A stretch of 64,000 bases of DNA from Girardia tigrina (lineage: Eukaryota). The notes under the pieces were generated by a model. It saw only the letters and a program-made list of their open reading frames with translations, searched no databases and was not told the origin of the DNA. The position numbers and the translations under genes are program-made. Below are positions 1 to 61,391 of the stretch, one piece after another (the stretch's first letter is position 1; every line of letters begins with the position of its first letter). The stretch covers positions 4,329-68,328 of the forward strand of contig MQRK01209170.1 of the NCBI GenBank assembly GCA_001938485.1. Direction: 5' to 3'.

Positions 1-134
1 GCGACCGTAACTAAGGTAATCGCGACCGTTGCTATGGTAACCGCGACCGTTGCCATGGTAACCGCGACCGTTGCTATGGTAATCGCGACCGTTGCCATGG
101 TAACCACGATAACCTATACTGTTGCCATGGTTAC
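1..134. repeat. 21-bp tandem array (GCGACCGTTGCYATGGTAAYC) containing palindromic RFX X-box-like motifs; open at window start
   Basis: Units at 1-21, 22-42, 43-63, 64-84 and 85-105, plus a lone core GTTGCCATGGTTAC at 121-134. Confidence 0.9.
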
Positions 135-238
135 GGCTAGGGGGGGGTGTAGGCCGAATGCCCATTTTCTCCCTACTTAAATCAATTAATTATTAATACA
201 ATAATATTTTTATAAACTTAAGAATTAAAATATTATAG

Positions 239-2213
239 ATGGAAAGATTTTTAAAACGGAAAGCAGCAGAAGCCGTATCCGACAACTCGGAATCAAGTTG
301 TAGTGGTGATGAGTCTGAATCAGCGACCACGGCATCAGACTTCTCAGTGACAAAAACTAAAAAGAAAACCGTTGCCAGAAAATGGAATGATGACTATATC
401 AAATATGGGTTTTATTTAACGGAGGAAGAAAAAACAAAGCCGAGTCCGAGACCTACCTGCATAATATGTATTAATACATCGTTAGCCAACCAAGCAATGG
501 TGACAAATAAGCTGAATCGTCATCTAACAAAAAAACATCCTGGACTTCAGTTCAAGCAGAAATCATATTTCATGACAATGAAGCAAAACATTCAAAAAGA
601 AGCCAAAACAATGGTAGGACCTGGCAGAAATGCACCTCTAGTTCGTGCATCGTTTCGAATTGCTCACCTGCTAGCACTTAATAAAAAACCATTTACTGAA
701 GCCGAGGATATGGTTGGCCCAGCACTGCAGATAGCTGCAGAGGAACTTCTTGGCAAAACTGCTCTCTCTAAAGTTAGAGAAATTTCTTTGTCCAACGACA
801 CAATGACCAGGAGAGTGGATATGATAGCTGACGACCTTGAGAATCAACTTATGACCAAGATCTGCTCAAGTCCTTGGTATAGTATTCAGTTCGACGAATC
901 TACGGATGTTACAAATAGAGCACAGTTAATTGGTTTCGTGCGTTTTTTAGATTTTGAAAAGGAAGACATTATCGAAGATTTCTTGTTTTGTGAAGATGTT
1001 GGTGTCGACAAAACTGGGGAGGCAATTTCTAAGACTATTTTGAAGATTCTTGTGGATAATCAAATACCCTTGAATAATTGTTCCAGAATAACCACAGATG
1101 GAGCTGCTGCCATGACAGGGATTCGAAATGGTGCTGTTTCAAAAATCAAGAAACTGGCACCAAACTGTGAAGGAACTCATTGTGACCTTCATCGGGAAAA
1201 TCTGGCAAGTAAACCATTGAATTCAGGAGAAAAAGGTCCATTTGACAAGGTGATGGAAGAGTGCGTCAAAGCAATAAATGAAATCAAAGCCAAAGCAAAA
1301 AGGTCAAGCATGTTCACACTGTTATGTGAAGAAATGGGGGAAAGTAACCGAACGCTTTTGTATCACTGTGATGTTCGTTGGCTTTCAAGAGGTGTTGCAT
1401 TGATGAGACTTTTTGCGTTACGTAAAGCTGTTTTGGCTTTTTTCAGGGAACAAAAGCATGATCTTGCTAATAAGTTTTCTGATAATTCCTGGCTTGCAAA
1501 ATTGGTCTATTTGGCAGATATTTTCTCAAAATTAAATGAGCTTAATCGCGGTCTTCAGGGCAGGGACATGGACATTTTCGCAGCAACTGACAAAATCGAG
1601 GCTTTCAAATTGAAAATATTTCTTTGGAAATCGCATGTAGAAAAAAAGTGATGTCACTGACTTTCCAAATCTAAAAACTGCCCTGTCAGAAGCAACCGAT
1701 GCAGATGAAACTGTTGATCGTCTTGCCGAAACTACACTCAGTCTTGCTTTGGAACATTTGAATGTTCTTTCTTAGAATTTTGATCGTTACTTTCCTTCGA
1801 TGTCTGAAGCTGATATTCAGAAAACAAGATGGATATTAAATCCGTTTCTCAAAGATAACGTCAATGGTACAAATTTGACAAACAGTAAACAAGAAGTTCT
1901 CATTGAGATGCACTGAGACTCACACATGAGAGATATGTTCAAACAATATCATCGTACGAAATTCTGGGCAAAGGCTTTTACAGAGGAACATTAAAAATCA
2001 GTGGCCACTAAAGCAATAAAAGAACTAGTTTTGTTTCACAGTTCATATCTATGCGAGCAAGGCTTTTCACAAATGATAATTGTAAAAAATAAGAAGCGCA
2101 ACAAACTAGGTGGTGCGAAACTAACATCTTGCCTCAGGATTGCACTAACAAAAACAGTTGAGCCTTGTTTCTATATGCTTAAGAAAAACATTCAAGGGCA
2201 GCCATCTCATTGA
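239..2213 (+). pseudogene. hAT (Buster/ZBED8/SCAND3-like) transposase, disrupted
   Basis: BED-like CxxC..H..H, QFDESTD, TTDGA, HCDLHRENLA, HCDVRWLS and C-terminal SSYLCEQGFS. Frameshift in the A-run near 1645 and in-frame stops near 1773 and 1991. Confidence 0.93.
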
Positions 2214-3090
2214 AATGATAATTATATTGGAAATTGTTTACAACATTTTACAATTTTCATTTTAGATTTTTAGCCCTAAAAAGTCTATTATAAAATAATT
2301 TTACTTTTAATTAATTTTTTAAATTTTGAAACTCAAAACTCTTTTGTGTTGTAACTGTGAACTTGTGAACTTGAGTAACTTGTGACTAGAATCACTAGAG
2401 TCACTTGACTAGAGTCTAGAATTAATACTTTGAAAACCTCAAAGTTACATAATAACTTCGCTTGATAACAGGTGTGTCACAAAATTTCATGTATTGTGTC
2501 GAGTGTGTCATTCGGAAAAAAAGGTTGAGAACCTTAGATCTAGATTAACACTAGTATAAGAAGCCAATAGATTCAAAAGTGTACCATTAAATCGTTCAAC
2601 TAAACCATTTGTTTGTGGATGATAAGCTGTTGTATTTAACTTTTCAATTTCAAAAATTTCTGCGGTCTCTTTCATCATTTCATTCATAAAATTTACTCCT
2701 TGGTCTGTTAATAGTTTTCGTGGAGCTCCATATTTAAAGATAATCTCTTCCACAAATATTTTTACAATCGTATTAGTTTTCTGATCAGGGATAGGAAACG
2801 CTTCTGACCACTTCGATAGATAATCACAAAAAGCTAAAATATATTTATTTTCATTTTTGCTTTCTGGTAGTGGTCCTACGACATCCATCGATACAAATTC
2901 CATTGGTGCTGACGATACTGGCATCGGCCTTAATGGTACTTTAAATTTATTTCCAGTATTTTTTCTTCTTAAGCAGATTTTACAACTTTGACACCATTGT
3001 TTGACATCTTTCTCAATTGTTGGCCAGAAATATTTTTGTTCAATCTTGAAAAAGTTTTTCTGGCAGACAAATGACCTCCTAATGTACCAT

Positions 3091-4507
3091 TGGACAGGAA
3101 ACCATGTCTCCACGATATTTTAGGAAGAGAATTGTTTCTCATTTTACATGTCGGTTGAAAGGTGCCTTTCATTTTATTAAACAAAAATTCAGCGTGATCC
3201 CATCTCGTTTACACAGTTCAAATTCACAATAGTCTTCACTAACACATACAGTCTTAGTATCGCTGGAAATTGTTAAATCGATTTTTACGGAATTATTTTG
3301 GTCATCAGAATCTTTTACATTCTCAGTATCTTCACAACATGCAATAATATCGATATTTGTTAGATTATTTTATTTACGATAATTACTGTTTTTAAATTTA
3401 TCGTCATTGATACTTATATAATTCTCAACGAGGCAATATAAAAGGTTGTGAGGGTAATAAGTTGCACCGGCGCTCAATAACAGTTGAAAAATTCGATAGT
3501 TTCCATAAGAAACCGCAAGATCTAATGGTGTGAGGCCAGTTTCTTTATCGACAAAATTTATTTCACAATTTTTATTCACTAATGATTGAACTATTTGCTC
3601 GTTCTGATTCCAAACCGCCCACCACAACGGTCTCCGGTGGTGCATGCCATCAGAATTAAGATCGGCACCCTTTCCAATCAGAAAGTTGACAGCAGAGACA
3701 TTATTTTTCTCACAAAACACATGCAAAAGATAAGACACGTCGGAATAATATATTTTTGTTTCCTTTGCAATTTTATCGGTAACCTTTAAACGTTTAAGAA
3801 TATGATCAATTTCTTTTGAATTTAATACCAATGACATTTATATTTTTTTACAACGCCTTTTTTTATCCAAAATTCAAATTGATTGTTCAAAAAAGAGCAA
3901 TAACGAAACGACCATTTTATTTTTAAATTGTTTTTAATTGGAATTGAAAAATTGTGATTAAAATTCACAATTACAATAAAATATAACACATATACTTTAA
4001 CACACATTCAACCAATCAACACATTTACATATACACACACAAACACACTTACATTACAAGAGAAAAGATTCATTATATAATTATATTGAATCAAAATGAA
4101 AAAAAACAATGAGGCTCAACATTAATTATTTACATTTTCAAATCTCGATTGTACATTTTTGATTTCGATAGCCAAGATTACATAACCACACACACCACCA
4201 TTCGAATTGCAGTTCAAATTGATTAAAACTGCAAATTTGACAGCTTTAATAAAGAATCCCAACAACACTCGAAAAATTCAATGTTGGACTAAAGATTTTT
4301 ATGCTCAACCATTCACTTAATTATTTATTATCAATTATTTAATCTATATATTTTTTTTATTTAATTTATTTATTTTCTTTTATTTAATTTAATTAATTTA
4401 TTTAATTATTTTAATTTATTAATTTAATTATTTAATTATATATTTTATTTTATATACTGAAACTGGCAAAATAAATGTTCGGTCAAAATTGGCAATTCTC
4501 CGCTCCA
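3091..4507 (-). mobile_element. 1417-bp insertion with TG..CA ends (TGGA..TCCA) and 5-bp TSD ACCAT; solo-LTR-like, carries an ankyrin ORF
   Basis: ACCAT at 3086-3090 and 4508-4512. Removing the insert and one TSD copy rejoins the integrase reading HYHDG-TLGGHLSARKTF. Confidence 0.85.
3370..3837 (-). CDS. Ankyrin-repeat protein (about 3 repeats); frame stays open 66 codons past the TAA, to a TGA at 3171-3169
   Basis: LLHVFCEKNNVSAVNFLIGKGADLN, RPLWWAVWNQNEQIVQSLVNKNCEIN and GLTPLDLAVSYGNYRIFQLLLSAGA fit the ankyrin consensus. Confidence 0.8.
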   Translation of the reverse strand: MSLVLNSKEIDHILKRLKVTDKIAKETKIYYSDVSYLLHVFCEKNNVSAVNFLIGKGADLNSDGMHHRRPLWWAVWNQNEQIVQSLVNKNCEINFVDKETGLTPLDLAVSYGNYRIFQLLLSAGATYYPHNLLYCLVENYISINDDKFKNSNYRK

Positions 4508-5985
4508 ACCATCATGATAGTGTAATAGTAATGTTTATCGAGAATTCTTTGGTATCACTAATAATTCGTTTTTGCCATCATAATATTTGAGTACATCTTG
4601 ATATACAAAATACTTTTTTCCTTGTTCGATTAAATATTTTAAATGTTTCATTTTAGATATAGGTGTTGCACGATTTTTAATATCTTGAATACTCTCGTCT
4701 AAATCTTGATCTGTTTTAAACTTTTCAAAGTCTGTTAATTCTCGAATTGCACTAATTACATTGTTTTTTATTGGTATACTGGTTTCAAAACTATTGTTTG
4801 GTTCATTTTAACCTTGATAGTGCATCTGCATTAGCATTGGCTTTACCGGTACGATAACGAATTTGAATATTATATTCTTGGAGTTTCAGTGCCCATCGAA
4901 TTAATTTCCTGGCGGAATCTCTGTGACTCATTAACTACTGAAGAGGGCTATGATCTGTGTAAAGAATGATTTTTTTCCATAAATATATTGTCGAAACTCA
5001 GTAACTGCAAAAATCATTGCTAAAGCTTCTTTTTCAATCGTTGCATAACTTTTTTCATGAGGTTTTAAGGTTCGACTCGCATACGCTATTACATGATCTT
5101 TTTCTCCATCTTTTTGTTGATCTAGGACTGCGCCAAGTGCATAACCACTTGCATCAGTCATCAATATAAAAGGTTTTGACGTATCGGGACAACGTAAAAT
5201 TGGTTCATTAATTAACTTTTGTTTTAATGTTTCAAACGCAATTTTTTGCTCATCATTCCAAATAAATTTAATATTTTTTCTTAATAACATATTAAGAGGA
5301 TTTGCAATATGAGCAAAATTTTTTATAAATCGTCAGTAGTATCCAGCAAGTCCTACAAACTGTTGAAGTTCTTTAATATTCTTTGGTGGTGGAAATTCTT
5401 TCACTTTTTTAATATTATCATAGCTGGGTTTTAATTGATTTTTTGATATAATATGTCCAACATATACTACTTGTGTTCTTCCAAAACTGCATTTTGTTGG
5501 TTTAATTTTTAATCCCGCCATTGCTAATCTTTCCAATACAAGTTCGACATCTATTTCATGTTCTTCATAAGTTTCTAAAAAATAATAATATCATCAATAT
5601 AGACTATAACATGATTAATGTCCATTAAAGTAAAATCCATCGATCTTTGAAAAAATGCAGGTGCTCTGGTTAAACCGAAAGGTAAAACATTAAACTCATA
5701 TAATCCTTTGCCATCTGTAAATGCAGTTTTCATTTTATCTGCTTCTTTTATTCCAAATTGCCAATATCCACAATGTAAATCAATTGTCGTAAAGATTTCA
5801 GCATTTCCCATTTTATCATACATTGTATTGATTAATGGTAAAGGATAAGTGTCATTTCTCGTCGCTGTATTTAATTTTCTATAATCTACATAAAATCTTT
5901 GCGATCCATCTGTCTTTTTCACCAGCACAATTAATTCACCATGGTGACGTCCATGGTGAGAAACTGGGTCGGATAATATCAAACT

Positions 5986-7227
5986 TTAACATTCCTTTAA
6001 TTTGTTTTTGAGTTTCATCCTGTAACGCATATGGGATTCTCTAAAGCTTTGCTTGATCGGAGTTTCATCCAACAATGGTATTTCATATTCAATAATATGA
6101 GTTCTTCCTAAATCATATTCATGTTTTGCGAATACTTTATCATATTTTCTAATTAACGGAGTGAACCTAGCTTTCTGACTTTCCGTTAAATTTGGAATTG
6201 TTACCACCGGTGGATCATATCTTTTTACATCTGGAGGAATACTTTTTGGAACTTTTACTTCCTGTACTAAAGATACAGTTCCAATTCTCGTTTGTGGTTG
6301 TATGATTTTCGGTTTTACATCAAAATTAACAAACCTGACTGGTATCAATTTTTGTGAGACTGATACTATTTCGCTACACATTTGAATATCATATTTCTTC
6401 ATAAACTCCTCATTTGGTTGAAAAAGTAGATCTCCTTTGATGTGACTGACTACATCTGCATGATATACTAATTCTGCTTGATAAAGAATTTCTAAATTTT
6501 CACTGATAAACACATCGGTTACTCTATGTAAGATTTTTCCATCAGGTATCGATACCAAATTTCCACTTTTTAAATCTAAAGAAATACCTTCTAACTGTTG
6601 CAAAACATCCATACCAAGCAATAATGATTCTGGGCAACTTTTTGAAATTAATACGTTTGTTATAATATTCTTGCCACCAATTTTTATTGACATTTGAACA
6701 GTTCCTTCAATCGCTAGATAATGACATGTAACTGATTGTAATTTTTCAATACAAGGTGCCAGATTTAACTTTTCAGATTCCAGAAGCATCTTTTCATCGA
6801 CAATTGTGACCGCTGAACCAGTATCAACTAAAGTTGTAAGATATCTATCATTTAATAAAAAAGTTATTGTTAATATTTTACCGAATTTAGTTCTCACAGC
6901 AAAAACATAATTACTTAGTAAAACCAATTGATTTCTTATTTCAACTTCTCTTTTTTGTTTTTCCTCTGAATTTAAAGTTTCCAGTTTTGGATCGATAGGT
7001 TTAATTTCCTTAAGTTGTAAGAATGGATAGTAATTCGGTAATGATCTAAAACTTGTCAGATTGAATGGTGCATTTGAATTTAACGTTTCTTGATTCTTTA
7101 TCATTTGTAGCTGATTCTCGTAATCTTTCGACTCGCTCTTCCAGACGATGGAAGATCGTAGTTCGGTCGTTTGTGACAAAACGGCAACGGGTTGCCGTGC
7201 TTGCTTCTGTTGGAGAGGCGGCTTCAT
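5986..7227 (-). CDS. Gypsy gag tail, aspartic protease and linker ORF
   Basis: LVDTGSAVTIV and LLLGMDVL retropepsin motifs; DLGRTHIIEYEI..TPIKQ RT leader. Confidence 0.8.
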   Translation of the reverse strand: MKPPLQQKQARQPVAVLSQTTELRSSIVWKSESKDYENQLQMIKNQETLNSNAPFNLTSFRSLPNYYPFLQLKEIKPIDPKLETLNSEEKQKREVEIRNQLVLLSNYVFAVRTKFGKILTITFLLNDRYLTTLVDTGSAVTIVDEKMLLESEKLNLAPCIEKLQSVTCHYLAIEGTVQMSIKIGGKNIITNVLISKSCPESLLLGMDVLQQLEGISLDLKSGNLVSIPDGKILHRVTDVFISENLEILYQAELVYHADVVSHIKGDLLFQPNEEFMKKYDIQMCSEIVSVSQKLIPVRFVNFDVKPKIIQPQTRIGTVSLVQEVKVPKSIPPDVKRYDPPVVTIPNLTESQKARFTPLIRKYDKVFAKHEYDLGRTHIIEYEIPLLDETPIKQSFRESHMRYRMKLKNKLKEC

Positions 7228-8019
7228 GAGTAACCCATGTGCCGCGTGTCAAGGACCATGTGCGTGTCCGTGTGAGTAATTCTGGTGTTTGAACTGACTC
7301 GACAAAACAGAGTTAGGAGACATGGATATGTTCCGTGCCGCCTGGAAGGGATTCCTTTCAATTCATATACCAATAATTCATGAGTTCCTCATTATTCAAG
7401 ATCGGTAAATCTTTCTCTCTTGGTCACCGATTTTTAGCCATCGCGAATGATCCGGGATTCGTATTCAATCCCGCGCAAATGCGCCATTTAAACCGCCGGT
7501 CAAATCGTTTTGATTCCATCTGATGACAGCAGCGATCGATGATGGATGAAAAGCGCTCGTATATGCGCTATTGACTTGCGAACTTTCCGAAGAGAAATTG
7601 ATCAACGAATTTCCGTTATTTTGACGGATATTCGCGTTCGATTTATCATTAGTCGAATAATTTTCACCCATTAGAATTGAAAATTAAAGTTTCATAATAT
7701 TTATTAACTTCATTGATTTAATAAAACAAATTTATAAATTTACAAATTACTGTTAATTGTTTTTTTATACATTAGAAATTATTGGGAAACGAAAATCCAA
7801 TGTTTCACGGTAATGTTTTTATTGATCATTCAAAAATTTTTTTATTGTTTTAAAATTTTTTTAATGCGCATCTGAATTTTTCAGTATTAAAAATTTCAGG
7901 GTTCGCAAATCCAATTAAAATTTTTTTTTCAAAATTAAAAATCAAAAAATTAAATTACATATCACTTAAAAAAACTCTTAATTGGTTGCTACTGCTGATG
8001 CGATTTAGTGAACACTACA
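7130..8019 (-). repeat. Probable truncated 5' LTR of Gypsy 1
   Basis: Starts TGTAGTG on the minus strand at 8019, as does the LTR at 12086, and has the same AT-rich then GC-rich layout. Inner boundary is approximate. Confidence 0.55.
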
Positions 8020-8028
8020 AATATCACT

Positions 8029-8120
8029 AAGGCTGTTGTCTGGGCAACACTCCTATATGGATGCGAGAGTTGGACAATAAATCAGAACAGTATGGATAGG
8101 CTTAAAGCGTTTGAAATGAA
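8029..8120 (+). mobile_element. RTE-clade LINE reverse transcriptase C-terminal fragment
   Basis: Translates KAVVWATLLYGCESWTINQNSMDRLKAFEM, matching the RTE LYGCESWT..LxAFEM motif. Confidence 0.75.
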
Positions 8121-9703
8121 GTCGACACCAGATCCGCCGTTTCCATTATTCCTCACACTTTCATGTTTCACTTGAAGCGACTCCCGCAGTACTTCAGCTC
8201 CGCTAACGGGACCACCGTTAACACGTACGGCACTGTACAGCTCACGATCACGTTGTACCATTTGGGAAATCAGTTCACTTGGACATTCACCATTGCAGGG
8301 GTGACACAACCCATCCTCGGAGCCGATTTTTTGGAACACTTCAAGATCTTGGTCGACTGCAGCACTCAAAATCTCGTGGCCAAGGTAAATCACAACATCG
8401 ACAACAACTTCCGACAGGAATCATGAGTCCCGCCGATGACCACAACAGAACGTTCGATCAACATCCTTGACGCCGACACTACCTGACAGATTCGCGAGCA
8501 ATTTCCAAACCTGCTGGATGATGCAAATGCCGCCAAACCTACAACTTGTGTATCAACACACGTAATCTCCACCACAAACTGTGCTCCAGTTCACCAACGG
8601 CGTAGAGAACTATCACAAGCGATCCGAACCCAAGCTGCCGAAGAATTTTGGAAATTAGAGGCAGCTGGTATCATCCGGCGCTCCTCCTCTCAGTGGGCTG
8701 CTTCACTCCAAATAATCAAAAAGAAGGATGGATCACTTAGGATCTGCAGGGACTACTTTGGAGTCAACAAGGTCACTATACCTGACTCATACCCCATGCC
8801 GTTGATAACTGACAAAACACTGACAAAACACAAAAAACACTTATTCGAAGTTCTGACGAGGCTTCATGATCACAACCTTCGCATTAAGCTCGACAAATAT
8901 CAATTCTTCCAGCCAAAGGTGGAGTTCCTGGGCCACAGCATTTCCAGAGATAGGGTCAGGCCACTGGAAAGCCGAATAAAAGCCATTCGAGACTTTCGTC
9001 GTCCAGAGACCGTCATGGCTCTCCGTAGTTTTTTAGGAATGATTAATTATGTCAGACGATTCATACCGAACCCATCCGGAATACTTGCCCCACTTACCAC
9101 ACTTTCTACTGGTCCGAAAGATCTAAAACAGCCTGGTCACGCGAAGCTGACACCGCATTCCAACAGGTCAAGGAGGATATGCTCGCGACAAACTCATTAC
9201 ATTTTCCCGACAGCAATCTCCCGGTAACAATGACAACCGATGCGTCGAACATTGTCATCGGTGCAGTGCTCATGCAGTTTCGTGGATACAAACCAGAACC
9301 GATAGAGTTCTTTTCACACAAGCTGTCTCCACCGCAGACGCGGTACTCGGCCTTCGATCGCGAACTATTAAAGTTGTACCTGTCCGTTTGTCACTTCAAG
9401 CATTTCATCATCGCCCAACTGACTACTGTCTACACGGATCACAAACCGCTAACGTTCTATCTAACGATGAAAAATCCATCTCAACCACAACAACACCAAA
9501 TGAGTTACCTGTCCCAGTTCAACAACAACGTACAACATATCAAAGGTGCCGAAAATGTGGTGGCAGATTGCCTTTCTAGAGCTGACATAATGAGTCTCGA
9601 CTTCAAGCCGTTGTTCACCGCAGAGGTATTGAAATACTATCCACCCACCTTGAAAGATCTCAGCTACTTCAAAATACCGCCAATCAAAAAAGGAAATGTG
9701 TAT

Positions 9704-10544
9704 TGTTGGAGTTCTTTTTGGTGAACTTTAAATTTTTGATATTTTTAAATTTTTGATATTTTTAAAAATCATGTTTGTATTTTAAATAAATTAAAATTAA
9801 TGTTCGATTACTTAAAATGAAATAATTCTTTAAAATAAAAACCTTTTAAATTCTTAAAAAAAGAACAAACTCATTCTTTAAATTTTTGGAAATAATTAAT
9901 TGTTATAAATAATCTCTAAAATAAAAAAATATTTAAAATCAAAAGTTTTTAAACAGTTATTAGTAAAAAATATCTTAATTAATTTTAGAAAGCTAATTTC
10001 ATAAATAATTGAATTTTAATTGTTTTGCATTTATTTTAAGAGTTATTCGGAAGAATTTTTTGTTAAAATTTTTGTTGTCAGAAATGTAATAAAAAAGATA
10101 ATTTAAAGTTAAAAGGCAGTTGGAAATTCTGCAAATTAAAATTCGATAAATAATAAATAATATATATATATATATATATATATATTAAACATTTTATAAT
10201 GAATGAATCTCTATTTTAATAATAATAAATTTAAATATTGCTAAATATTTTTGTATTTTAAATTTGTAAGTTATTTTTGCAATTTTATTAAAAACAAATC
10301 TAAGGTTTTTATTAAAAAGAAATAATTGAATTTTTAAAATATTTTTAAAGATCTAAATTTATGCAAAATTGAATAAAATAACATATTTATATATTAATCG
10401 ATATTATTATTTATATTTAGAATTTTGAGATCTGGATTATGTAATTAAAATATTGTTCATCATAAATTTGTTTCAATAATGAAAATTTTAGTAGAAATAA
10501 AGTTTACAAAATTATGACTTCATATTGTAATCACGAACCTAATA
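9704..10544 (+). mobile_element. AT-rich solo-LTR-like insertion, 5-bp TSD TGTAT (family copy 1)
   Basis: TGTAT at 9699-9703 and 10545-10549. Ends TGTTGGAGTTC and GAACCTAATA. Excision restores pol GNVYYDTS. Confidence 0.8.
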
Positions 10545-12085
10545 TGTATTATGACACGTCGCTCCTGGGATGCCTCCGGTCAGTGCTTGATCAGGATCTA
10601 CAGGTTCAGGCCTTCGAGGCAATTTACAACTCATTAAAGGCAACCTACCAGCTGATAAGAAACAAAGTCATTTGACCGTTCATGCGGAAAGACATTACTC
10701 TTTGGTCTCGCACCTGTTTCCAGTGCCAGAAGAATAAGGTCACGAAGCACACCAAAACGCCATTACTGACCTTCTCCACCGGCAGCTGTTTCGACACGGT
10801 GCATATGGACATTGTCGGAACACTTCCTATGTCACATGGCTACCAGTACATCTTTACCATCTTAGACAAGAACACGAGGTGACCCTAGGAGTTCCCAATC
10901 AGATCACTAGCCACTGACACCATTATTGAAATATTCGTCAATCACTGGATTTCTCGTTTCGGCATTCCGAAGAGGTTCATAACAGATCAGGGGTGACAAT
11001 TCGAGTCAGAGTTATTCAGCGACCTCACAAAACGACTGGGCATCCAAAAATCACGACCACCGCGTACCACCCACAAATCAACTGCCTGATAGAACGATTC
11101 CACCGTACCCTGAAGAACTCATTCAGAACGTTAGCACAGAAACACGATTGTGCGAAGCAGTTACCACTCATTTTGCTAGGCTGGAGAAACATTCCCCATA
11201 GCAGATATGGTACCTCGTCCGCACAAATGTTCTTCGGCTCAAACACCTCCTTAAACAACGAACTATTCTTCAATGAGGCACCAAAAAACGATGAGATGTT
11301 AATGGCGGCACGTGAACACTTTTTGCAAGCCGACAGAACACCACCAAACCAGAGGGACAGCACATCTTCATCGCGAAATAACTTGCGACCTCAAAATTTG
11401 TTTGGCGCCAAAAGGAAGCCGCGAACTCTCTAGAAAGTCGCCACACCGGACCACATAAGCTCCTAACCGTCGCATTAGATAACAACACAGTTAAAATTTT
11501 GGTACATGGCAAGGAGATCACCGTGAATATTTGCAAGCCTTGCCTGCACTTGGAAGATTCCATCCAGGACGAAACCAAGCAAAAGCCGGACAACAACAAC
11601 TCCCCCAAAAAGAAAGCTAGAACGTCAAAGAGCATATTAGCCACGAAAACAACAAGAAAACCATCTCAAAGGAAGATCATACGACCGGCACGTTTCCATG
11701 ACTACACCAAGTAACGCGTAACGACCTCACACCCTCAACACAACTACAACACACGCTCACAACATCACACAGCAACAGATCACGCACAAACCACAAACCC
11801 CCACAACAACAACAACACGCAACTCCCCACCTTCACACCTCTACAACACAATACACCACACCCAAACAACCAACACGTCAAACAAAACCCTCACCGACAC
11901 AGCAACAATGCAATCATACCCCCACAACCCAATACATCACACGCAAACAGACATAAAAAAAACCAACATGAACAACACTGCAACACACCTTGTTTCAAGG
12001 AATATTCATTCTCGCACCCCTCCTACTTCCAGCAGCCCTCCACAATGCAACAACCACTATGCTCCGCATTCTTCAGCGGGGCTCG

Positions 12086-15409: not shown

Positions 15410-18400
15410 CTAAATGAATGATTATCAATACAAAATGATTATTTAAAGAAATTAAAACAACTAGACATCACCAAATTTTCATTTACAAAGGATCAATGAA
15501 AAAAAACAGAAAGTAAGAAAATGTCGAGTTACAAAAATATTGAAATTAATTTTAAAATAAATATACGACATTTTATGCTGAATAAAACAAATTATCTTTA
15601 CGAGATGTTTATTATTATTATGGGTTACTAAAATTTTCAATTCATCAAATAAATTTTTGTGTGAAATTATGACTTCTAATCAAACTTTGAATCAAATAAT
15701 ATCGAAGATAATGTCAATGCTACTGACAATAATAAAACATATTTTTAATCAGATATTCGCTACGATATAAAATTTTCGTCCTGATTTCATAATGAAATCT
15801 TTGTTCTTTGTAATACCTAAATTGCAATCCGTAAATGTATTGTCCTATACATGTTCGTTTGATGATGGATGTGCATAATTGTTTGTTCATTTTTTTATGG
15901 CGTGCTTGTGATTTTTGTTTTATATATTACTTATAGCGAGGGAAGAATTTTTATGTTGATGTTGTCTTTTTTTAATCTGTCTTATTGCGATTATCGGAAT
16001 CAGTTTTTTGATTAATGTTTGGTTGGAATCTCTCAATACCGATGATACTGAAATGCAAAAAAAACAAAATTCAGATAGATAAAATTATATTTTCACAGTT
16101 TGATTCAGCAAAAGAGAATCATTTTTGATTTAGCGGCTTCCATACGGACCACTCGTTTCTTGTCACTCACTAACTTATTCAATGTTGATTTGATTGCAGC
16201 AAAGTACTTCACCGTGTTGTAATTTGGGAAGGACAGCACAAACCAACCGATCACCTTTGCCAAAAACTAGCGATCTTTCTAATAGAGATAAATAAATGAG
16301 AACCTATATTCGAAACTCGAAATAATATACTGGTTCAGGAGAACTTCTAAAATCACACAGTGCAAATATATTTTCGGCTATGTCTTCAATATATTGTGAC
16401 AATCGGTTGTCTTGAGAGTGCAGATTACAAATGGCTTTCAATACATCCAGACGCAATGAAATTTTTTTTATTGTCAAGCCAAAAGAACCATTGACTCACG
16501 ATGTCTATTATCTATAGAAATGAACATATTAACCCTATCAAGACATCTCCTTCATAACTTTACCGCATCAACAGAAAACTCTTTGATATGTTTCGAATAA
16601 CTCTTAATAAGCTTCAAATAGATCTCCGTTGAAATATATCGTTATTTGATTTTAAATTTTAATAATATGGTCAATGATCGCTTAGCGATCACAAAATCAA
16701 TAAATTAATTTGATGAAGATTTAATTTGGCATATGTTATACATATATTTTTTTATCCTAGACTGTTTATGTGTGACAGAGGTTATATATTTTTGTGTGTT
16801 GATTTAAAATTTATTGTCTATTTGAATTTAGTTTTGTTTATTTTTTTAATAATAAATTTCACGATTAAATCGCACTACTTCGTTTTCGTTCATATTATTT
16901 AATTATACTGATAAAATTACACTATATTCTATAATTTAAATTTTTATTTAAAACAAATTTCTAGATATGAGGTGTGTTCCAGATTTGAATTAACCCTTTA
17001 CTGACTATTGATGCCATATGGAATCATAATATATATCAGACTTGTATAGCCATCTATGAATGAATAGGGATAACATTTTTTATTTAGATCGATAAGAAGA
17101 TATATTTGTTGTCAATTAAATTTTTACTCTAATTACTTTACTGCTTTCGCATATATTTTACTACATACTTTTGGTGTGTTTAAATTGATATTCTTAATTC
17201 AGCCAGGAAAGGGTTAATAAAAAAAATTAAAGAAATAATTAACATTGAAATTGGAATTTTGCATTCCAATTTCAAGTCATTAAAATTATATAATATATAT
17301 TTATATATGTATATGTATATACATTATTGAGAAGTTAAATTTTTTATGGTTTAAAAATTCGTTTGTTTAAACGAATTATTATAATTAATGTTAGTTTTGA
17401 TATCTAATAAAGATAGTTCAATATCGATTTTTTGTTAATTAGAATTAATAGAAAAATATTAAAACGAATTACTTATTAAAAGATTGATAGAAACATTGAT
17501 TTTTGGAATTATAAGTAAATTATATTTGAAATGGATGATGGATTGAACATAAAATCGAGACAAGATTATTCGTACGATTATCCGATTTTGGACGAATGTG
17601 CCAATTATTGTCTAACTGGAATCATTCAATTTCTACAAAACGAATGGACGAAAATCGAAATCAAACCGTTCAATGGGAAGTGAATGGGAACGAGCTGAAT
17701 TTCAGGCAAAAATAAATTATTTACAAGGCGAAAGAAAATGTCAGGAGAGTGAAATGTGATTTGATTCGACGAATAAAAATGTTGGAATATGCACTGAAAC
17801 AAGAGCGAAATAAACTGAGCGCATTGACGGGCGACAGCGACAACTCGATAAACATTGTGATCTTCGAGAACACTCTGAACAATGACGAAAAAGCCGAATT
17901 CGATGACGCCGATATCTATTTGGAGTTCTCGAAAAATAATCAGAAAATCAATGATGAAAATATCAAATGGAAAGGCGAAAGAAATACGGTCCTCTTCAGG
18001 GCCAAAAATCTTGATTGGAAAGTGGAGACGGATTCGACAAAAACAAGGTGTAAGTAATAAGTTTTTGCATGTCAAGCTACATGTTAATAAACAATAAATA
18101 TTTTTAAATGGCTTTTATTTTATTAAGCTACGATGCTTACATATAGTTTATGGAATTGCAATTACAAAAGTAGCCTAACGCCGCAGTAGAGCATTGGGAG
18201 GCTTCATGTAGCTTGAAGGAATGATGCTACTTCACGTTGCATTGCTTTTGAGTGCTTTGCAGAATTTAGATATGGTCAATGCCAGCTGGATAACGAGGCT
18301 CATTTTGTAAAAGCTACCAAGAGGAAGATGCACAAGTGACTATTGCACAATTAGAGGTAACCATCAGAATCTCATCGATATAAATCCTCCCTATCCTACT

Positions 18401-27400: not shown

Positions 27401-30400
27401 TTTATTGTTTCAAATTGGTTGTTTAATTTTTCAATTTTTTTCATTTTAATTTTTTTTAATTAAAATTTTTTATAATAAATAAAAAGAAACTATAAGAATA
27501 ATAGTAATAATAATACAAATAATAAGCGATAATAACTCCATAGCATCATGGAAAGGGGGTTAAAATAGCAAGAAAAACATTTTAAACATTTGTAGATAAT
27601 CGTAAAACGATTTTTGCCAAAAAATTGTAAGTAGATAATTTAATCATCTACTTACAATTGTAAGTAAATAATATGAGCTTTCCGCACAGAATCAGTCAAT
27701 CATTCAATCAGCTACAGAATGGGACTATTGTATATTTGATAAATTGTGTTGAGTTTTTGCGTGATTGGTTCAAAAGGGTCAAGTTTCAATTATGTTTAGA
27801 ATTTTCTTTAATAAAAAAGAAAAAAATGAAAAATATTTTAATGTTATTCCATCAGCATAAAATGCATCGGTTCTCGAAGCGACGAATTCTTGGAAGGCAT
27901 TTTGAGCATCATTTTGGTTTTTAAAAATTTTTTCACGTAGGAAGTTGTACAAATACCTGAAAAAGTAAAATCGTTTTTATTGCGAAGATGATTGGCAGAA
28001 CAAATTTCATAACGTCAGTTCTTTTCATTTTCATTCAAATCATGTGGAACCCATTTATCAAGTTTCTTGATTTTTCCAAGTTGTTTGAAATGATCCAGGA
28101 CTGTTGAATGACTAATGCCTAACCCATCTGCAAGTTCTCTGATTGTTTTACGGGGATCGGTTTCAACCATTGTCCTCAAATTGTCGTTGTTCACAGTAAC
28201 TGGACGACCACAAACTTCTTCATCTACAAGATTTTCATCTCCATCAGAAAATTTTCAGAACCATCGTTACACTGTGCACTCAGAAGCTGTTCCCTTTCCA
28301 AACGCTTTATTGATATTGTGAGCCGTTTCTGCTGCTTTACGACCCAGTTTAAATTCGTACAAGAAAATTGCTCGAATTTTAATTTTTTCCATTATTAATT
28401 TAGTACCGTAAATATTNNNNNNNNNNNNNNNNNNNNNNNNNNNNNNNNNNNNNNNNNNNNNNNNNNTAGGCATAAGATTTCAAATAATATCTAACACTAA
28501 TGCATTTAAACTTATATACATATCAAAGTAGATAAACAAAGTATAAAGCTCAAAAACCGCCATTATTTCTCGACCAACCTAATATTAATCAATTCGAATG
28601 AGTCTAACTTACGAGAGTTTTGTTAATAATTACTCTGAGGAAAAATCAATTTGTAACATTAATGTTGTTACGTTGTGGTTTTTTTACGAAAATTAATTTT
28701 GTATAATATATCTTTTAGTACCTCTAATATCCTCACATTCATCTAGTTCAGCGTATTTTAAACTGGGTTTTATTTATTTTTAGTTTTTTTACCTTTTAAT
28801 TTGTATTTTAAATATTCATATTGTAATATAAAATAAAAAAATATTTACTAAAAGTAATAATGTCTCATAAATAATGAAAGCGTTGAAGAAGAATTTTTAT
28901 TTTGTCGAACTTTGATAGAACATACAAGAAGAGAAGATATTTACGGTAAAGTTGACAAATTTTTTAAAAGTGATAGTTTAGATTGGAAAAATTGCTACGG
29001 AATATGCACAGATGATGCGAAATCAATGACGGGTGAAAATATCGGTTTCAAATCATTTGTTAAAGCTGCTAATAAGTATAACATTTACACACTGTCTTCT
29101 TCATAGAGAGGCACTTGCAGCAAAAAAATAACACCAGAATTAAACGAAGTCTTTCATAATGTGTAAAAATTATAAACTTTATTAGAAGTCGTGACATAAA
29201 CAGTCGCTTACCTTCCGAGTTCATTGTTCTAACTGATATTCTGTAAACCTGTATTCTGTATTCTGTAAATTAATGTTTTATATTTTTTTTAAATGATCAT
29301 TCTTTTGTTGATTTCTTACACGTTATTTATTTTAGAACACATAATATTCTCATTTATTTTATTCTAAAATGCCAAATATTAATTTATTATTTAACTTTCA
29401 GTTAATAAGTATTCAGCTTAAAACAAACGAATAAACTCCGAAAGGCGCTTATTGATTTATCAATTCAGTTTTCGTCAGTAGACATATCGAATACATAAAG
29501 TAAACAATATTAAATAGTGGAAGTTATGTGGAAAGTTAACCAAAGTAAAAGGTAAACTCTGAAGGATGTTTATCAACTTTGGTAAGTATTCAATTTGGAA
29601 GGATTTTTTCTTCAAAGTCTGAAAATAAGTGTGCCTCCATGAATATAATTTATCTCAAAAATTACTAGTACTTTTCGTAAGTTTCATAATTTTACAAAAT
29701 CCAATTTGAAATCGTACAGTAGCATATCCCTTTTGGTGCAAACTCTCAACTAGTATCTAATTTTGTAAAATATGCGATGCAACTATAAAGTCTTTAGACT
29801 CTTAAAAAGATAAGGAATACATGGAAACCAAATTGTATATTTACAAAATTATTTATATGCTACAGATATAAAATAAGTTTTATTTAATTGTTATAAATTT
29901 GGTTTAAAATTAGAGGTGAACATCTGTTGGGGCCTCCATTAAGAAAAAGATTTTTTAAAAGTTTCTTTTGAGTTTTTTAGCAAAAAGACTTTGTTACCCT
30001 TTCGAAGTGATCTGTCTAATCTAAAATACATATTTGTATTTATATTAAACACTATATACTTTATTTATATTTTTCTCATTGTTTTCTTTCTCTCTCTCTT
30101 TATTCTTGAATCTCTGGCTATGTATATTAATTATAAATATAAACATATAGGATTTAAGATTATATATTAAAAGAATCGATAATAAAATAACGTTTTTGAG
30201 TCACTATATAATTTTTATCACTTTACATTATTTTAATTTAAAAAATATTTTACTTTTCATTCAATTGAATCCTCCGAAATATTGGGAAAATGAAATAGTT
30301 ATGTCATAATTTTTAAATTGAAATGTGTTTTAAACAGTGATAAAAATTTTGGTGTATAAGTTGTATATGTGGATTTATGATTCACTGTTTTTAGACCTTT

Positions 30401-33400: not shown

Positions 33401-36400
33401 CAACTCTAGGAACAAGAAATATATGTATCCAAAGGCTCTGTTCGAACTGCTGACTTTTTGTTTAAAGTTGTTTTGTGTCTGTTGTTTTTGGTGAACTTTA
33501 AATTTGTGAAAATTTTTAAATTGAAAATCATATTTATATTTAAGTTAAAATAATTTTACACAAGTTTTTGAAAATCAAATTAAAGTCTAATTAAAATGAA
33601 TGTGTATAATTTAAGTTCAAAATCAAAATAAAAATAATTTTTTTTACCAAAAATTAATTTTCAGAAATCTATATTTAAACAATAACAGCAATGTTTGACT
33701 AATTAAAATGGATTAAAAATTTTGATTACATTAATTTACAATAGATTAAAGAATATTTTTTGTATAAAATGAAGTTTTAAAAAAATTATAATGTTTTATT
33801 GAAATTAATTGTAAACTGGAATTTATTAAAAAATAATTTATCATTGAAATATTTCCCATTAAAATATTTTTCAAGATCTAAAATCCTATTTAAGTTTAAT
33901 AAACATTGTAAAAAAATAATTTATACAAAACTTAATAAAAACGCATTTAGGTATATCGATATTTATATTTAGAAATTTAAAATCTGGTTTGTGCAAACTG
34001 AAAATATTGTTCCTCATAAATTTGTTTATATAATGAACGTTGTAATATAAATAAAATTTAATCATGAACCTTGATCTTAATCACGAACCCAATAGTGTTT
34101 ATTAAATGAAAAATTTTACATTGTAGCAATGGTTAACTTGCTCCAGTGCTGGTATCAATCTTCATGCAGTTGATGGAAGGGAACTGTCATTCCAACAACG
34201 GCAAAGAACGATTTATTTTCACGATCAAAACGATTACAATACAATTTTCAAAACATTCGATAAAAAGTGAATATTAAAATAACAATTTTAATTTCACCCT
34301 CAAACAACATGAAAAATAATGTCTCATTATACATGGACCTCGTAAAGAACGCAAACAAGTTAATAAAATTTATTATATAAAATATTGATCGGGGTTTGCT
34401 AACCAATTAAACTTGGAAATCTTCTCCTTTTTATATTAAGGCAATATTATATAATATTATGTAAAATGCCCCGGGGTCAGTTGATGCAATTGAAATTGAC
34501 CTTGTAATTGCACATTCCCGTGATGTCATGACACAAAATCACGGGAATTCGAACTCTAGTAATGTCATGAGATTTGAAATCATTGAAGTTCAATATTACT
34601 GAATGTGGTGAGGAATGACATCACCACAGACCTATTTACTGCAGAATAACCATATTTTTATAAAAGGAATGTGGATAGTTTATTTTTAGTTTTCCATGAC
34701 GAATTTTGAATTTCATGTTCATTCATAATTATATTGATTTTGCAAGAGAATTGAAGGTTAATAATAATCTTCCATTCCAGGATTTCCATGTAAAAGAACG
34801 AATGGTAAATAATAAAAGGAATGGTAAAGTTAAACATCAGAAGTATGAATTTATACACTATCAAAAATTTTAATAATTTTTAACAGGCTTTTAAATAAAA
34901 ATTACAGCGAATGTTTAAACAAAATTTTTGACCAAAGTAAGAATAAATTTTGTATATAAAAATATCCAAAAAACGATGTTCAAATACGTATGACAAGAGA
35001 AATGTATTTCATCATGGATGTATCAGATATACGTAAAATGAATAAAGTTATAAATCACTCTTTCCAGACCTTTTTTAAGAATCGCCCACATGGTTTTCAT
35101 CACGACTTCTATAGATGGACGAATGAGTTTTTCTGCAATAGTATGTGGCTTCCCTACTTTTGCAATTAGACCAGATATCTCGTAACTGGCTAGAAGTCCT
35201 GCTTGTGACATTGAAACATGCGATTTGAAGATGGAGGAAATAGTTGAACGAGCTTCGAAAATGGAAAGTAGCTTGTTGAAAAATTGAACATTGGAATTTT
35301 CTTTATCTGGATGCACCCTCTTCAGATGTTCCTTCATTCGTGAAGGCTTCATTGCCTCGTTTGAAAATGATTTCTGGCAAAGGAGGCAAAGTGGAATCCG
35401 ATCATCTTGCGGGAACTTCGTAAAACCGTACTTTTGATACTCCACGTTATATAGACGCGCGACTGCTTTTGTTTTCCTATCTATTTTTGAAATTTTCGCA
35501 CGACTTTCTGTCATGTTGTAATATTTGTCTTTTTTGATTTTAAGTAAAATTTAAATTACAAAACACAAAAAAATATTATAACAAAATAAAGTAATTTTCA
35601 ATTTAATAAAACGATGTAAATTTTAAATTACTTAAATATATAGATCAGAATTTTAATATTAAATAAAATGTTAAAAAATTAAATAGAATTTTTCGTTAGA
35701 ACTGTCGTAACATTTTCAATAAATTAACAAATTATAAATGTTGAATTATGAAATTACATATCGCCCACTAATTCTACATTCACTATTCATCACTCATACA
35801 TTATTTTTGATCGCCCAGGTTGGGAAACACTGTTTTAAATTGTCCTCAATTCATTAAATTTATGAAGTATAGAAAAATGGGAAATTACCTCCTCTTAAAG
35901 ATGCGTCTATCTAAAGTTTCTCATTAAAGATGACCATATTGGAAAAATGTCTGATATTCTTTGTTTCTGATTCTCAAACAGCCAAATTGAATGTACTTCC
36001 AAAAGTAAAAAAATATAGAATTTATATTTCGTACTCTACAGTATAATACTGCAAAATATATAGATATGCAATTGAAACCTTTATCAAAGTATACCTTTAT
36101 GCTTTTATATAGGACGTAATTGATTACTATGCTAAGGATCACAACGCAAATCAATAGTTTCCTGTAACAGAACATTTGCAAACAGACTTGATACATCAAA
36201 AGAAACCATAAAGTCATACTTTGATTGAATTTCAAAGCTAGACTTAGAATTAAAAATTTAAACTATTCTGACAAGTAAAATTCTTAAGAATTAAAGGTTT
36301 CAATTGCATTTCCGGGTCAATCCTAATTTAAACTTAAACACACCAACATCATATAAATAAGAAAACGATTCCGACAAAAGATTTTTATTTAATGATATAT

Positions 36401-44200: not shown

Positions 44201-47200
44201 TGAGTACTCGCTATCCAGTCATACATCATGAAGGATGAAGCAGAAAATTCAGGAACTGCAAGGTATCGATGTCATTTTCCACCCAGCGTATTGATTGACC
44301 TTTCTGATTATCATCTGTTTCGGTCCTTTTCACATTTCTTACACGAGAGACACTTTGCTTCAGAGGAAGTCAAAACTGGAATCGCCAAATATTTTTCCCT
44401 CTAAGACTCCATGTGATTGAGCAATAGGCAGAAAGATGGCTTTGAGTCACTGAAAATGATGGACTGTATTTCGAGGAATAATATAATCAGTGTCAAAAGT
44501 TTCTACAAATATAATATTCCCAAAACAACATGAATAACCTGGTATATATATACCGTATTACTTCGATTTAACGCCGCCCTCTTATAAACGCCGCTTTAAA
44601 GAATATAATTGTACAATCAGTCATAATTTATAATATAATATATCTAAAAGTAAGATTGTGTTTCAAGCACCAGTATAATTTTATTAAATAAAAAGTATTA
44701 TATCACTCCTATTTCTATCTCATCCGCGTCATCAATTTCATCATTCCCATCATCGTCTTCATCTTCGTCTTCGCACATGTATGGTATAGTTTCTTGCACT
44801 GGCTAGATGAGTTCATCTCGAGCTGATTCTGCAACTTTGCCTTTTCTAGTACAACTGTTGACGTCAGTATCGGAAGAAGTGATGCCACACACTTTGAAAG
44901 ACTTGATAATTATTTCTTGTGACACGTTATTCCACTCTTCCTTTATCCATTTTACCATATCAGCTTTGCAGAGGCGCGAGGATTTCCTGCAGGTGTACAA
45001 CTAGCTGGTCGACTTTTATCTTGTAACAAATTTTCAAAAAATTCGCGATACTTGTCTTTGAACGGCTCTTTCCATGACACATCCGCTGGTTGAAGAAGCT
45101 TCGTGCAACCACCGGGAATGCATGCCATTGTTGTCTTTGAAGCTTTCAGAGCAGTACGTGCCTCAGTGGTTAAATGGCAACGGAATGAGTCCCATACAAA
45201 GAGTCTCTGATGAAAGGCAAAGTTACCCCACACCTTGTTAATCCACGTCATAGTGTTGTAAGGCTTCATCCAACCATTGTCAGACATTTCATTATTCGTA
45301 TTCCTACTAACTCTGTCGGCATTCTTTTTCCTTTAAACACGACAGACGGAGGTAATTTACGTCCATCAGCCATAGCTGACAGACACACTGTGATGCGACT
45401 TTTTTCATGTCCAGTCGTAAGCATGGGAACATGCTGTACTCCACGAATATCCACTATTGCATCTCCGGGCACATCCGCCCATATTGCGGTTTCGTCCATG
45501 TTGCCAATATTTTCTGGCCGCAGTAGATGTTGGCATCGTTGCTCTTTGCAATAGCAGACGAATTCCACTACCTTCTTTGCCAACTCTGGTGAAAGTCGTT
45601 GCCCAGTTGTTGTTTTACTATGGAGGACGAAATTATGACGCTCCATAAACTTTTCTACCCATCCACGGCTTGCTTGGAAATTGGGGTCGTTGGCTAGAGC
45701 AATAGCCTTGCTGTATATAGATTTGCGTGTAACTCGATGATAGAGTGAGCGCTCATCTAAAATCCATTGTCGTATTTTAAGTTCCATTTCTTCATTATTA
45801 ACTTTACGACCACCGCCAGTTTTGAGACTTTGCATGCTCCAATTGATGCATCCAGATCTGAAAACTTTCCAGCGGCTTCATGTTGTCTGCACGCACGAAT
45901 CCATTTTTCGTCAATATGAAGCTACACTGTTGCTGGACGATTTCCTTTCATTTTTACTAGGTCGACAGCTCTCTGTTTGAAAGTTAGGTCATAAGATCGT
46001 TTGCTCGGCATTCTTTTCTATAAAAAATAACCAAATATATTGTGTATTTTTTAAAAAAATATTTTTGATTTGAATAAAGTTTTTTTAATTTTATTTTTTT
46101 TAATTTCTGAAATAAACGCCCTCGATTTATCACCGCACCTTCGATTCAGCATTTGAAATAAAAACCGCGGCGTTAAATCGAAGTAATACGATACATGTTA
46201 TTGTTTTGTTATTTTATTTAAATAAATTTAATATTTGTCGCAGTGTTCTCTCTTTGAAAACTGTGAAACAGTGGTGTAAAATGGGGGATCGAGGGGTTGA
46301 CGGGTGCCACGTCTGTGAGGGGCGGCATTTTTCAATGGCTAAAAAAATTACAAAAAAAATAAAATTAATAAAATTCCAACAAGAATTCAGATTCTGAAAT
46401 GTTGGCCATTACGGAATGTTTAAAACGAAAGAAAAAGACGGGAACGAAGGACCTTTAAAACTTTTGAGTTTCATACAGAGATATCATATTGGGAACTCAA
46501 TTCCTATTAATGTAATCTTGCTGCGCATCTTTCTTACCCAGCCTTTTAGCGTTGCTACCTGCGAACGCTCATTTTCAGAACTAAAGCTCATAAAGAACTA
46601 CAATGATCTACAATGAGTCAATCAATGCTTACAGACTTAGCAGTCTGTTCTATATAAAGGCAGCTTGCAGTTGAACTGAATTTTGATACTGTTATCAATA
46701 AATTTGCAGAAATGAAAGCGCGACAAGTTTGCTTGGAAATTGTAAATAAAATTATAAATTTTGAAACTACTTCGTAAATTTTATTATTAAAATACGATTA
46801 TTGAAAGACGAAAATGAAATGAAAGTCAAAGTTTAAGACTGGCGATTACAGCACTCTATTTAATTCTTAGCATAGACAGTCATTGAGGGTTGCCGATAAT
46901 GATGGGGGCGGAAAATCTTAGGACCGCCCGGGTGCAAATAACAGTTGCTATGTCACTGCTGTGAGATCAAAGATTCAGTACTCAACATGGATATCCACAA
47001 TAAAATTTTAATAAAATCGACAAAATATTGATTCAATGAAAGAATCATTAAGGAAATCGAACCGGTAATTAAGCTGGATATCACCAAGGGAATGATGAGC
47101 ATTTTAAACATATTCATCATCAATTCTCCTGGAAATCCAACCAACTTAGCTTGTCTGTACGTTACCGAAGTTACAGATCTCAACACCAGTCCGATCGATA

Positions 47201-47820: not shown

Positions 47821-49295
47821 GGTACGCCGACTTTACCGCGCCGACTTTACCGCGCCGACTTTACCACGGGCGACTTTATCGCGGACGACTTTACCACGGG
47901 TGACTTTACACCGGGTGACTTTACCGCGGAAAATTTACAACAAAATTATCAAAAAGTAAACAATGTCATCTAAAATATATATAAAAAATTTTAATTATGT
48001 AATCATAAAACAATGAATCATAATTAGGTTTTAATTTGAAAACATAAATGGATAGAAAATTTCAGATGGACATGACATTTAATTATTCTTTTTAATAAAA
48101 AAAATAAACAAACAACATACGAAAAATTAGTAAATTCCTAATTTAAAAAATTCAAATAACGCAAAAAATGTGATGTGTAAATTGAAGAAAGATACAAAAA
48201 CATTAAACTGTTTCTTTTATTTTTTTCCAAATTGATTGGCTCAGGTAAAAAAATCAGCCTTTAACAGTAGCAATACAAAATACAATGGAAACATCTTTCA
48301 TTGCTCCTTTTCAAAATCTATCATAATAGTTTGTAGATTTAAATTTGGTTGTTGTCTTAAAAGCTTTTCAAACATACGAGTGTAATTTAATTGAGTTTTA
48401 TTGGTCATCAATGCATAAACAGGAGGGAATACTTTGTTTGATTTTAAAGCATGTATAGTATAAACTTGGTAAAATAATCGAGGGGCGACAGAGAATGTCC
48501 CATCCATAAACCAATTTTCACAAGAAGTCATCAGATTTATGTTTGCAGTTGTACTGAAGAGCATTATCCGGTTGGCATCATTAGATCCAGAATCGAGTAT
48601 CAAAAAAGATTCATTTCTAGTTGTAAACCTCAAATTTTCAGGAACATTTATATCTGAAAGATGATTTTGATTTGGCCAAGGAACATTCTCTTGTTTTCTT
48701 TTTCGTTGAATTGTACGTTGACTAGAGTGATAACTTGGAAGAAATATTGCAACGTCAAGTGGAATCCCAGTCTTAGATTTCTGAATAATTTGCCTCGGGG
48801 CCTCTACTGTCTGCGATGCAGGAGTTGCAACCCCCTGAGCAATTTGCCTAGCGACAACTTTACCTAGCTAAGGAGCGTGATTATACTCAGAAGGGCGACC
48901 TAAAATAATAGATGCCTCGTTGTTGTTTGAAGTATGAATTTTTCCTTTACATTTATGTTGTTCATAAGCAACAACAGCGCCAGAATATTCCATCTAGGGA
49001 TTTTAAATCATAATCAAAGCGATAAGAATAACCTGCATACGCAACAATCGGATTTCCAGATTTTGAAGTAAAGAATTGAAGATTCATGCTGAAAAAACAG
49101 GGAGAGAAAAATTTAAAGAAATTTATAATATTTTAAGATATATTTTTAAACGTAAATGGAAAATTTTATTATAATTATTATATTTTAATAAAGCATTATT
49201 CGGTAATAATGGCAAAAAATATCTTAATTAAAAATCTGAAAAAATCCGCGATAAAGTCGCCTGCGGTAAAGTCGCCGCGGTAAAGTCGCCTCACC
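47821..49295 (-). mobile_element. MULE/Mutator element with tandem-repeat TIRs, internally deleted
   Basis: Perfect 9-bp TSD GTATTCTAC at 47812-47820 and 49296-49304; repeats of CGACTTTACCGCG at both ends; WFMDGTF..FYQVYTIH..MIDFE. Confidence 0.92.
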
Positions 49296-59837: not shown

Positions 59838-60053
59838 CTGAAATAATAAAAAATATAAATTAATAATATAAAAGTTATAAAACCCATTTTAAGATAGTCT
59901 TGAAATATTTTTATGACTTTAATGATTTCAATCTGATAGAAGATCAAAATTTCTTATTTCAATGAAGGACATCATGACGATATATGTTTTCCGGATTTCT
60001 TGAATTTAAGAAATGAAAAAGAACATTAAAATTGTAATTCTGAATTCAAATTT

Positions 60054-61382: not shown

Positions 61383-61391
61383 TATATATAA

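Follow-up and report, generated by a model that had tools for sequence, protein, structure and literature searches.

X-box-like palindromes at 21-bp pitch in a putative Maverick-type terminal repeat beside a broken hAT transposase of Girardia tigrina

The window analyzed here, a stretch of 64,000 nucleotides (64 kb) from the planarian Girardia tigrina, opens with a series of 21-bp repeats built around palindromic cores, which resemble the X-box bound by RFX/DAF-19 factors, and continues with the reading frame of a hAT transposase. This arrangement raises the question of which mobile element owns the repeats, and which protein would bind them. The original prediction took the array for a possible RFX enhancer carried by a transposon, with the hAT as its natural owner, and allowed for a separate nested element as a second reading.

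The array and its outer boundary

The array is real and non-random. A tandem repeat with a period of 21, 5.2 copies, 88% matches and no indels was delineated by TRF at 1-109, and as the array starts before position 1 of the window, this interval is its visible part only. The cores at 28-41, 49-62 and 91-104 match the sequence GTTGCYATGGYAAC exactly, and those at 70-83 and 121-134 deviate by one mismatch each, as had been read from the sequence originally. With up to two mismatches allowed, 10 strand-matches to GTTGCYATGGYAAC are present in the window, compared with 0.60 expected, and none of 100 shuffles reached 10. The five predicted 21-bp units are found at 1-105, where the first core is degenerate; the core at 121-134, which had been counted among them, starts 30 bp after position 91 and thus falls outside the 21-bp register. 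No second copy of 1-180 was found within the 64-kb window, and the exact 14-mer core was not found in a literature search.

The proposed likeness to the X-box, an imperfect 14-bp inverted repeat (PMC5838959 and PMC2873420, in excerpt), holds for most of the cores. Four of the six fit the mammalian pattern, which has one such site in the other 63.8 kb, and five of the six fit the C. elegans pattern, which has five. Promoters of ciliary genes typically contain a single X-box or a few (same excerpts), whereas here the sites form an array of 21-bp pitch in the putative end of a mobile element. Variation among the units is confined to the cores (5/14 columns vary) and spares the spacer (0/7); if RFX sites alone were under selection, the reverse pattern would be expected.

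The right-hand limit of the array segment is sharp. GC content drops from 43-63% over 1-180 to 7-10% over 181-240; the changepoint is placed best at 176, followed by 173, 177, 174 and 178. At this step, positions 172-177 read CCTACT (AGTAGG inwards), a documented variant of the Maverick end motif, and any given 10 bases of the window have a ~0.4% chance of containing a hexamer of Maverick type. The common Maverick end motifs are (AGT)2//(ACT)2 and (AG)3//(CT)3, accompanied by a 6-bp target-site duplication (TSD), and are believed to permit jumping-back when replication is protein-primed (PMC8097293, in excerpt); CCTACT matches (AGT)2 at five of six bases. The vertebrate table of that source gives 712 occurrences of ACTACT, 339 of AGAGAG, 41 of CCTACT and 37 of AGTAGG, and AGTAGG is paired with CCTACT in six of the rows listed, all from the tuatara. 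The AGTAGG variant is documented in the excerpted text only in vertebrates, in contrast to the flatworm host considered here. Maverick terminal inverted repeats (TIRs) span 46-1447 bp according to the same excerpts, a range that the visible 177 bp of the window fits.

Very probably, then, 1-177 is part of an element separate from the hAT, and its terminal sequence makes it reasonably likely that this element is of Maverick type. It would represent the outer part of a TIR of a Maverick/Polinton, or of a non-autonomous derivative, inserted into the 5' leader of the hAT. The assignment is made from one end; the opposite one, along with the partner of the predicted TSD TAAATC, would lie upstream of the window, and the body with any pPolB, rve integrase, ATPase, protease and capsid genes would likewise fall outside it. 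Neither the window nor the comparator contig described below showed a pPolB, integrase or capsid gene of the element, a second TIR or a TSD partner.

Several other properties of the segment were considered. The CCATNTT string at 162-168 is a YY1-like core. A terminal hairpin in the window is unsupported (z +0.5 to +1.4), and a structured RNA was rejected, the Rfam match being sub-threshold (E 0.2, 19.5 vs 110 gathering bits). The open frame 1-177 was discarded both as a gene and as a probe for further copies, having 0 matches in 1.84 billion representatives and Atlas matches of at most 0.82 with low recognition. Comparison of 1-180 with plasmids and phages by BLASTN gave no match.

Table 1. 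Features of the array segment, the neighbouring hAT and its Gypsy-type host, in window coordinates
Position	Strand	Feature	Remarks
1-105		five 21-bp tandem units (7-bp spacer + 14-bp palindromic core)	open at window start
7-20		first core, degenerate	fits neither consensus tested
28-41		X-box core	both consensus patterns matched on both strands
49-62		X-box core	12/14 positions self-complementary
70-83		X-box-like core, last base T	C. elegans pattern only, minus strand
91-104		X-box core	self-complementary at 12/14 positions
121-134	-	outermost X-box	full minus-strand match to both patterns; ends 43 bp from putative terminus
135-171		terminal segment	G8 run (140-147), CCATNTT (162-168), no significant hairpin
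172-177	+	CCTACT, putative Maverick/Polinton-type end motif (inward AGTAGG)	at GC-to-AT step
178-183	+	TAAATC, predicted 6-bp target-site duplication	
178-238	+	AT-rich leader, 7-10% GC	putatively assigned to hAT
239-2213	+	broken hAT transposase, ZBED5/SCAND3 type	80% and 78% identity to P0001 over two frames
2473-2537	-	hAT right end: three GTGTC subterminal motifs + TIR	followed by ATCTAGAT at 2538-2545
2508-7248	-	broken Gypsy-type retrotransposon	integrase, RNase H, RT, protease-like ORFs

A second end with the same core and pitch

A search of GTDB for pairs of X-boxes separated by 3-20 bp returned four loci, with ~0.005 expected under uniform base use. One of them, L002 (WPAE01000165.1), is a repeat-rich contig of 2254 bp with 40% GC and a longest ORF of 112 codons, which looks like eukaryotic contamination of an Ignavibacteria MAG; the bin is probably contaminated, because another protein of such a MAG, P0253, is a member of the L002 repeat family. 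In L002, four YY1-like repeats of 15 bp and a partial core are followed by three cores spaced by 21 and 21 bp, a hairpin containing three E-box and two CRE-like motifs, and finally ACTACT, 112 bp outward of the cores. Its terminal hairpin is strong (z ~ -6) vs none in the window, and no hAT match was found in L002. The end motif is (ACT)2, the commonest one of Mavericks/Polintons (PMC8097293, in excerpt). The spacers of L002 are unlike those of the window, and between the two loci the core is better conserved than the spacer. The 21-bp period is weak evidence by itself, since among the 26 periods between 10 and 35 there are 5 that deviate from a whole helical turn by no more than 0.5 bp, and it gains weight only because L002 shares the pitch despite its different spacers.

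When the reading frame at the L002 end was used as a query, 26 of 28 candidates turned out to be spurious ORFs from further copies of the family. The cores are reached by 14 of these 26, and all 14 in-frame core intervals measure 7 codons, while three cross-frame intervals measure 20 bp, not 21. These copies are of common ancestry and the query was in phase, hence the pitch is stable in one family, which does not amount to independent selection. Some copies, as read from their frames, contain the half-site GTAACC, which is also present at 121-134 of the window and which stays within the RFX degeneracy GTNRCC. In 12 of the 26 ORFs the inner module occurs without X-box cores, several of them running into other sequence. 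The L002-type end is crossed by four, all diverging at the first residue after the ACTACT-encoded ones (S, K, T and G, compared with C or P, depending on frame, in L002). Thus all five ends (L002 and these 4/26 ORFs) combine a fixed (ACT)2 terminus with a free flank, at codon-level resolution, which excludes TTAA, TA and TWA targets in the L002 family. Read inward from the sixth base, the ends of L002 and of the window resemble each other in an anchored test (score reached in 11-23 of 2000 shuffles), which was chosen after the sequences had been inspected; the unanchored similarity is not significant (53/500).

The motif and spacing shared by L002 and the window hint, at the level of sequence, that such elements recruit host RFX factors. 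If the end is of Maverick type, we give a little better than an even chance to host RFX binding the array and mattering for the element. It is unlikely that such an end carries an X-box fit that is incidental, its repeats being bound by an element-encoded protein (the integrase, the terminal protein and an uncharacterised ORF are candidates) or having arisen by neutral amplification. The invariant spacer and variable core of the window agree with this alternative, as does the single core in one of the 26 L002-family ORFs (P0246), which spans the inner region up to the end. On the other hand, most of the variation falls on positions at which the RFX motif is itself degenerate, two families with different spacers have the core and the pitch in common, and the L002 end packs four YY1-like, three E-box and two CRE-like motifs together, as would be expected of a platform for host factors.

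The remaining three GTDB loci are bacterial, with pitches of 20, 31 and 32, and were set aside as being of non-comparable origin; nevertheless they count against the specificity of the motif, and palindrome pairs beside a MarR gene exemplify a use other than by RFX, in favour of an incidental fit. Bacteria lack RFX (PMC2873420, in excerpt), and as they use the same palindrome, other winged-helix proteins can use X-box-like sequence. Two perfect GTTGCCATGGCAAC palindromes 31-32 bp apart are found in Myceligenerans at L003 4001-4045 and L004 4001-4046. The L003 pair is flanked on one side by a MarR gene and on the other by a divergent FAD monooxygenase, and its palindromes are probably MarR operators. 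In a Methylobacterium MAG, two perfect palindromes 20 bp apart (L001 4001-4034) precede a ferredoxin-reductase-like ORF.

Cut-and-paste elements and the neighbouring hAT

Equally improbable is a nested cut-and-paste element (MULE/foldback, PIF/Harbinger, Academ or a TTAA family) in which the repeats would be transposase-binding sites. It is favoured by the neighbouring cuts at 173, 175, 176 and 177, which fit known signatures of such elements. A cut at 173 gives GGGAG inward and is MULE/foldback-like, with one end visible, GGG together with TA or a 9-bp TSD being a signature of MULE or Tc1-like elements; a cut at 175 fits TAG, that of Academ, and one at 176 yields TTAA with the inward end GTAGGG. 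Known ends beside TTAA are CC in piggyBac, RR in Kolobok and GAG in Sola3, and the inward GT at the TTAA cut fits none of them. The Maverick-type cut at 177 would also give an AG terminus and a TAA target, which is PIF/Harbinger-like (TSD TAA/TTA; PMC3014272, in excerpt), again with one end visible. The L002 family, however, keeps ACTACT with a free flank in 5/5 ends. The separate nested element that had been considered as a second reading probably exists, while a MITE with a TTAA target is not its best description, because the cut at 177 gives the Maverick motif.

Subterminal arrays are a frequent property of cut-and-paste elements. According to excerpts of PMC5225508, 10 of 12 long-TIR MULE families of Aedes have subterminal repeats of 9-15 bp, and the TIRs of the foldback-type Muta1 consist of a short motif at the terminus and, behind it, a subterminal tandem array. 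The window itself contains a MULE at 47821-49295 with GG...CC ends and a 9-bp TSD GTATTCTAC (47812, 49296); each of its ends has a GC-rich tandem array of 14/15-bp units, and an ORF with the MULE domain lies at 48298-48867 on the minus strand. In both cases, however, the units are shorter and head-to-tail, and those of the MULE in the window are not palindromes. Muta1 (same excerpts) differs further by its 8-9-bp TSD and its units of 9-15 bp, as opposed to the 21-bp unit, the palindromic core and the Maverick-type hexamer at 1-177.

The transposase downstream is a pseudogene: its frame is shifted near 1641-1648, and three further stops follow. Pfam and PDB searches gave no match for it, and Pfam none for P0001, hence its family assignment is based on names and precomputed domains. 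The ZBED5/SCAND3-type transposases make up the Buster family, whose target is nnnTAnnn, which ATCTAGAT fits. The adjacent ORF, the right TIR and the ATCTAGAT flank belong to such a Buster hAT, which was inserted at 2538-2545 into the integrase ORF of the Gypsy element on the minus strand; an rve match at 2511-3119 belongs to the Gypsy fragment. The array, in contrast, lacks the subterminal motif of the hAT: GACAC/GTGTC occurs 0 times in 1-238 vs 3 times in 2213-2537. Within 1-238 the best match to the left TIR is 9/15 at position 11, a score equalled or exceeded in 140 of 245 control stretches, and ATCTAGAT is absent. The candidate left TIR at position 11, with a 7-base match to the right TIR, was rejected because of its background score, its flank in the array and the TSD mismatch. 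Since 1-238 contains neither GTGTC nor a left TIR above background, the array is not a transposase-binding repeat of the hAT. That a mobile element carries the array is supported; ownership by the hAT is not.

An RFX enhancer belonging to the hAT itself, which would serve expression in testis or ciliated cells and spread X-boxes as the hAT moves, is very hard to sustain: the last core lies 105 bp from the ATG (134 vs 239, close to the 100 bp of the original prediction), a distance in the usual range of 100-250 bp for ciliary genes of C. elegans (PMC2873420, in excerpt), and the left TIR of the hAT must lie upstream of the window, which formally places the array inside it, but the sharp compositional step ends on a known end motif, GACAC/GTGTC and an above-background TIR match are missing from 1-238, L002 has such an array with no hAT match, and the hAT copy is broken. 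The postulated specificity for testis or ciliated cells is likewise unsupported, most human RFX1-3, 5, 7 TSSs being broadly expressed (PMC5838959, in excerpt).

The window contains a number of further elements and genes. Between the Gypsy integrase and RT fragments lies an ORF for 155 amino acids of ankyrin repeats (3370-3837, minus strand), possibly a cargo or another insertion, and fragments of a second Gypsy-like element are found at 8115-11714 on the plus strand. Additional hAT fragments occur at 28867-29210 and 35023-35550, two mariner-like copies that are 84% identical at 28149-28585 and 60951-61385, and a pogo-like element at 44952-45877. Exons of an SLC1 glutamate transporter extend over 15307-59848 on the minus strand, forming one gene from ~47264 downward, and C-terminal SLC1 exons at 59848 and 56078 indicate a tandem paralogue upstream. 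Among the 120 matches listed of 303 for a glutamate-transporter exon, the highest identity, 78%, is with a protein of Schmidtea mediterranea, which points to a triclad flatworm as the probable host. The ORF at 17716-18057 on the plus strand, judged from its translation, resembles the N-terminal coiled coil of striatin.

A possible role of host RFX at a protein-primed end

We return to the Maverick-type end with host-RFX sites, which would imply a nested order of insertions: the Maverick-type end in the Buster-type hAT, and the hAT in the Gypsy integrase. Dimers of host RFX would bind the palindromes, and the 21-bp pitch would align consecutive dimers along the same side of the helix, adjoining, from 43 bp onwards, the terminal bases where protein-primed replication is predicted to start. 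The array might thereby act as a terminal enhancer of inward transcription, as an auxiliary origin, or as both, and any effect on the hAT ORF 105 bp away would be incidental, the hAT copy being dead. To this account as a whole, i.e. a Maverick-type TIR in the hAT leader whose phased host-RFX sites serve as enhancer or auxiliary origin, we assign a probability of roughly 0.4.

The idea of a terminal platform for host RFX was derived by analogy with the host-factor sites in the adenovirus inverted terminal repeat, where sites for host NFI and Oct-1 lie just inside the end, the Oct-1 site reportedly stimulating replication. Adenovirus also replicates by protein priming (PMC5033970, in excerpt), and the proposed logic, host-factor sites inside a protein-primed end, would be common to both; the putative element differs in its factor (RFX), in the tandem arrangement of its sites and in being integrated. 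By this analogy, the end in the window most likely functions in the manner of a viral terminal repeat that is packed with sites for host factors.

Such an arrangement appears to be new among the sources covered. The Maverick passages of PMC8097293 describe no X-box arrays, and no X-box core was found in the supplements of PMC8097293, PMC8502044, PMC10748475, PMC11131425 and PMC11296320, which may hold no animal Maverick TIR DNA. A literature search combining RFX, X-box, transposon and terminal inverted repeat found no paper, and a search of mainly openly available papers brought up none that describes X-box or RFX sites at the ends of Mavericks or TIR elements; one paper naming both RFX and Polintons does so in an unrelated context.

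A broader claim, that animal Mavericks/Polintons of distant hosts keep X-box arrays with a pitch of two helical turns inside their protein-primed ends, along with YY1-like and other host-factor sites, so that the array is an origin and enhancer dependent on host factors, is a speculation that we regard as rather unlikely. If either the Maverick assignment or RFX binding fails, what remains is an ordinary subterminal repeat array. If the broader claim is true, RFX would play for these endogenous viruses the part that NFI and Oct-1 play for adenovirus, it would contribute to setting where Mavericks wake, for instance in an RFX-rich germ line or in multiciliated epithelia, and each insertion would bring a ready RFX enhancer to its neighbours. 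For the annotation of this locus, the array is probably to be corrected from a hAT promoter to a foreign insertion. Mavericks/Polintons are known mainly from sequence; if a specific host factor has phased sites at their ends, their activation and replication in animal cells would become testable.
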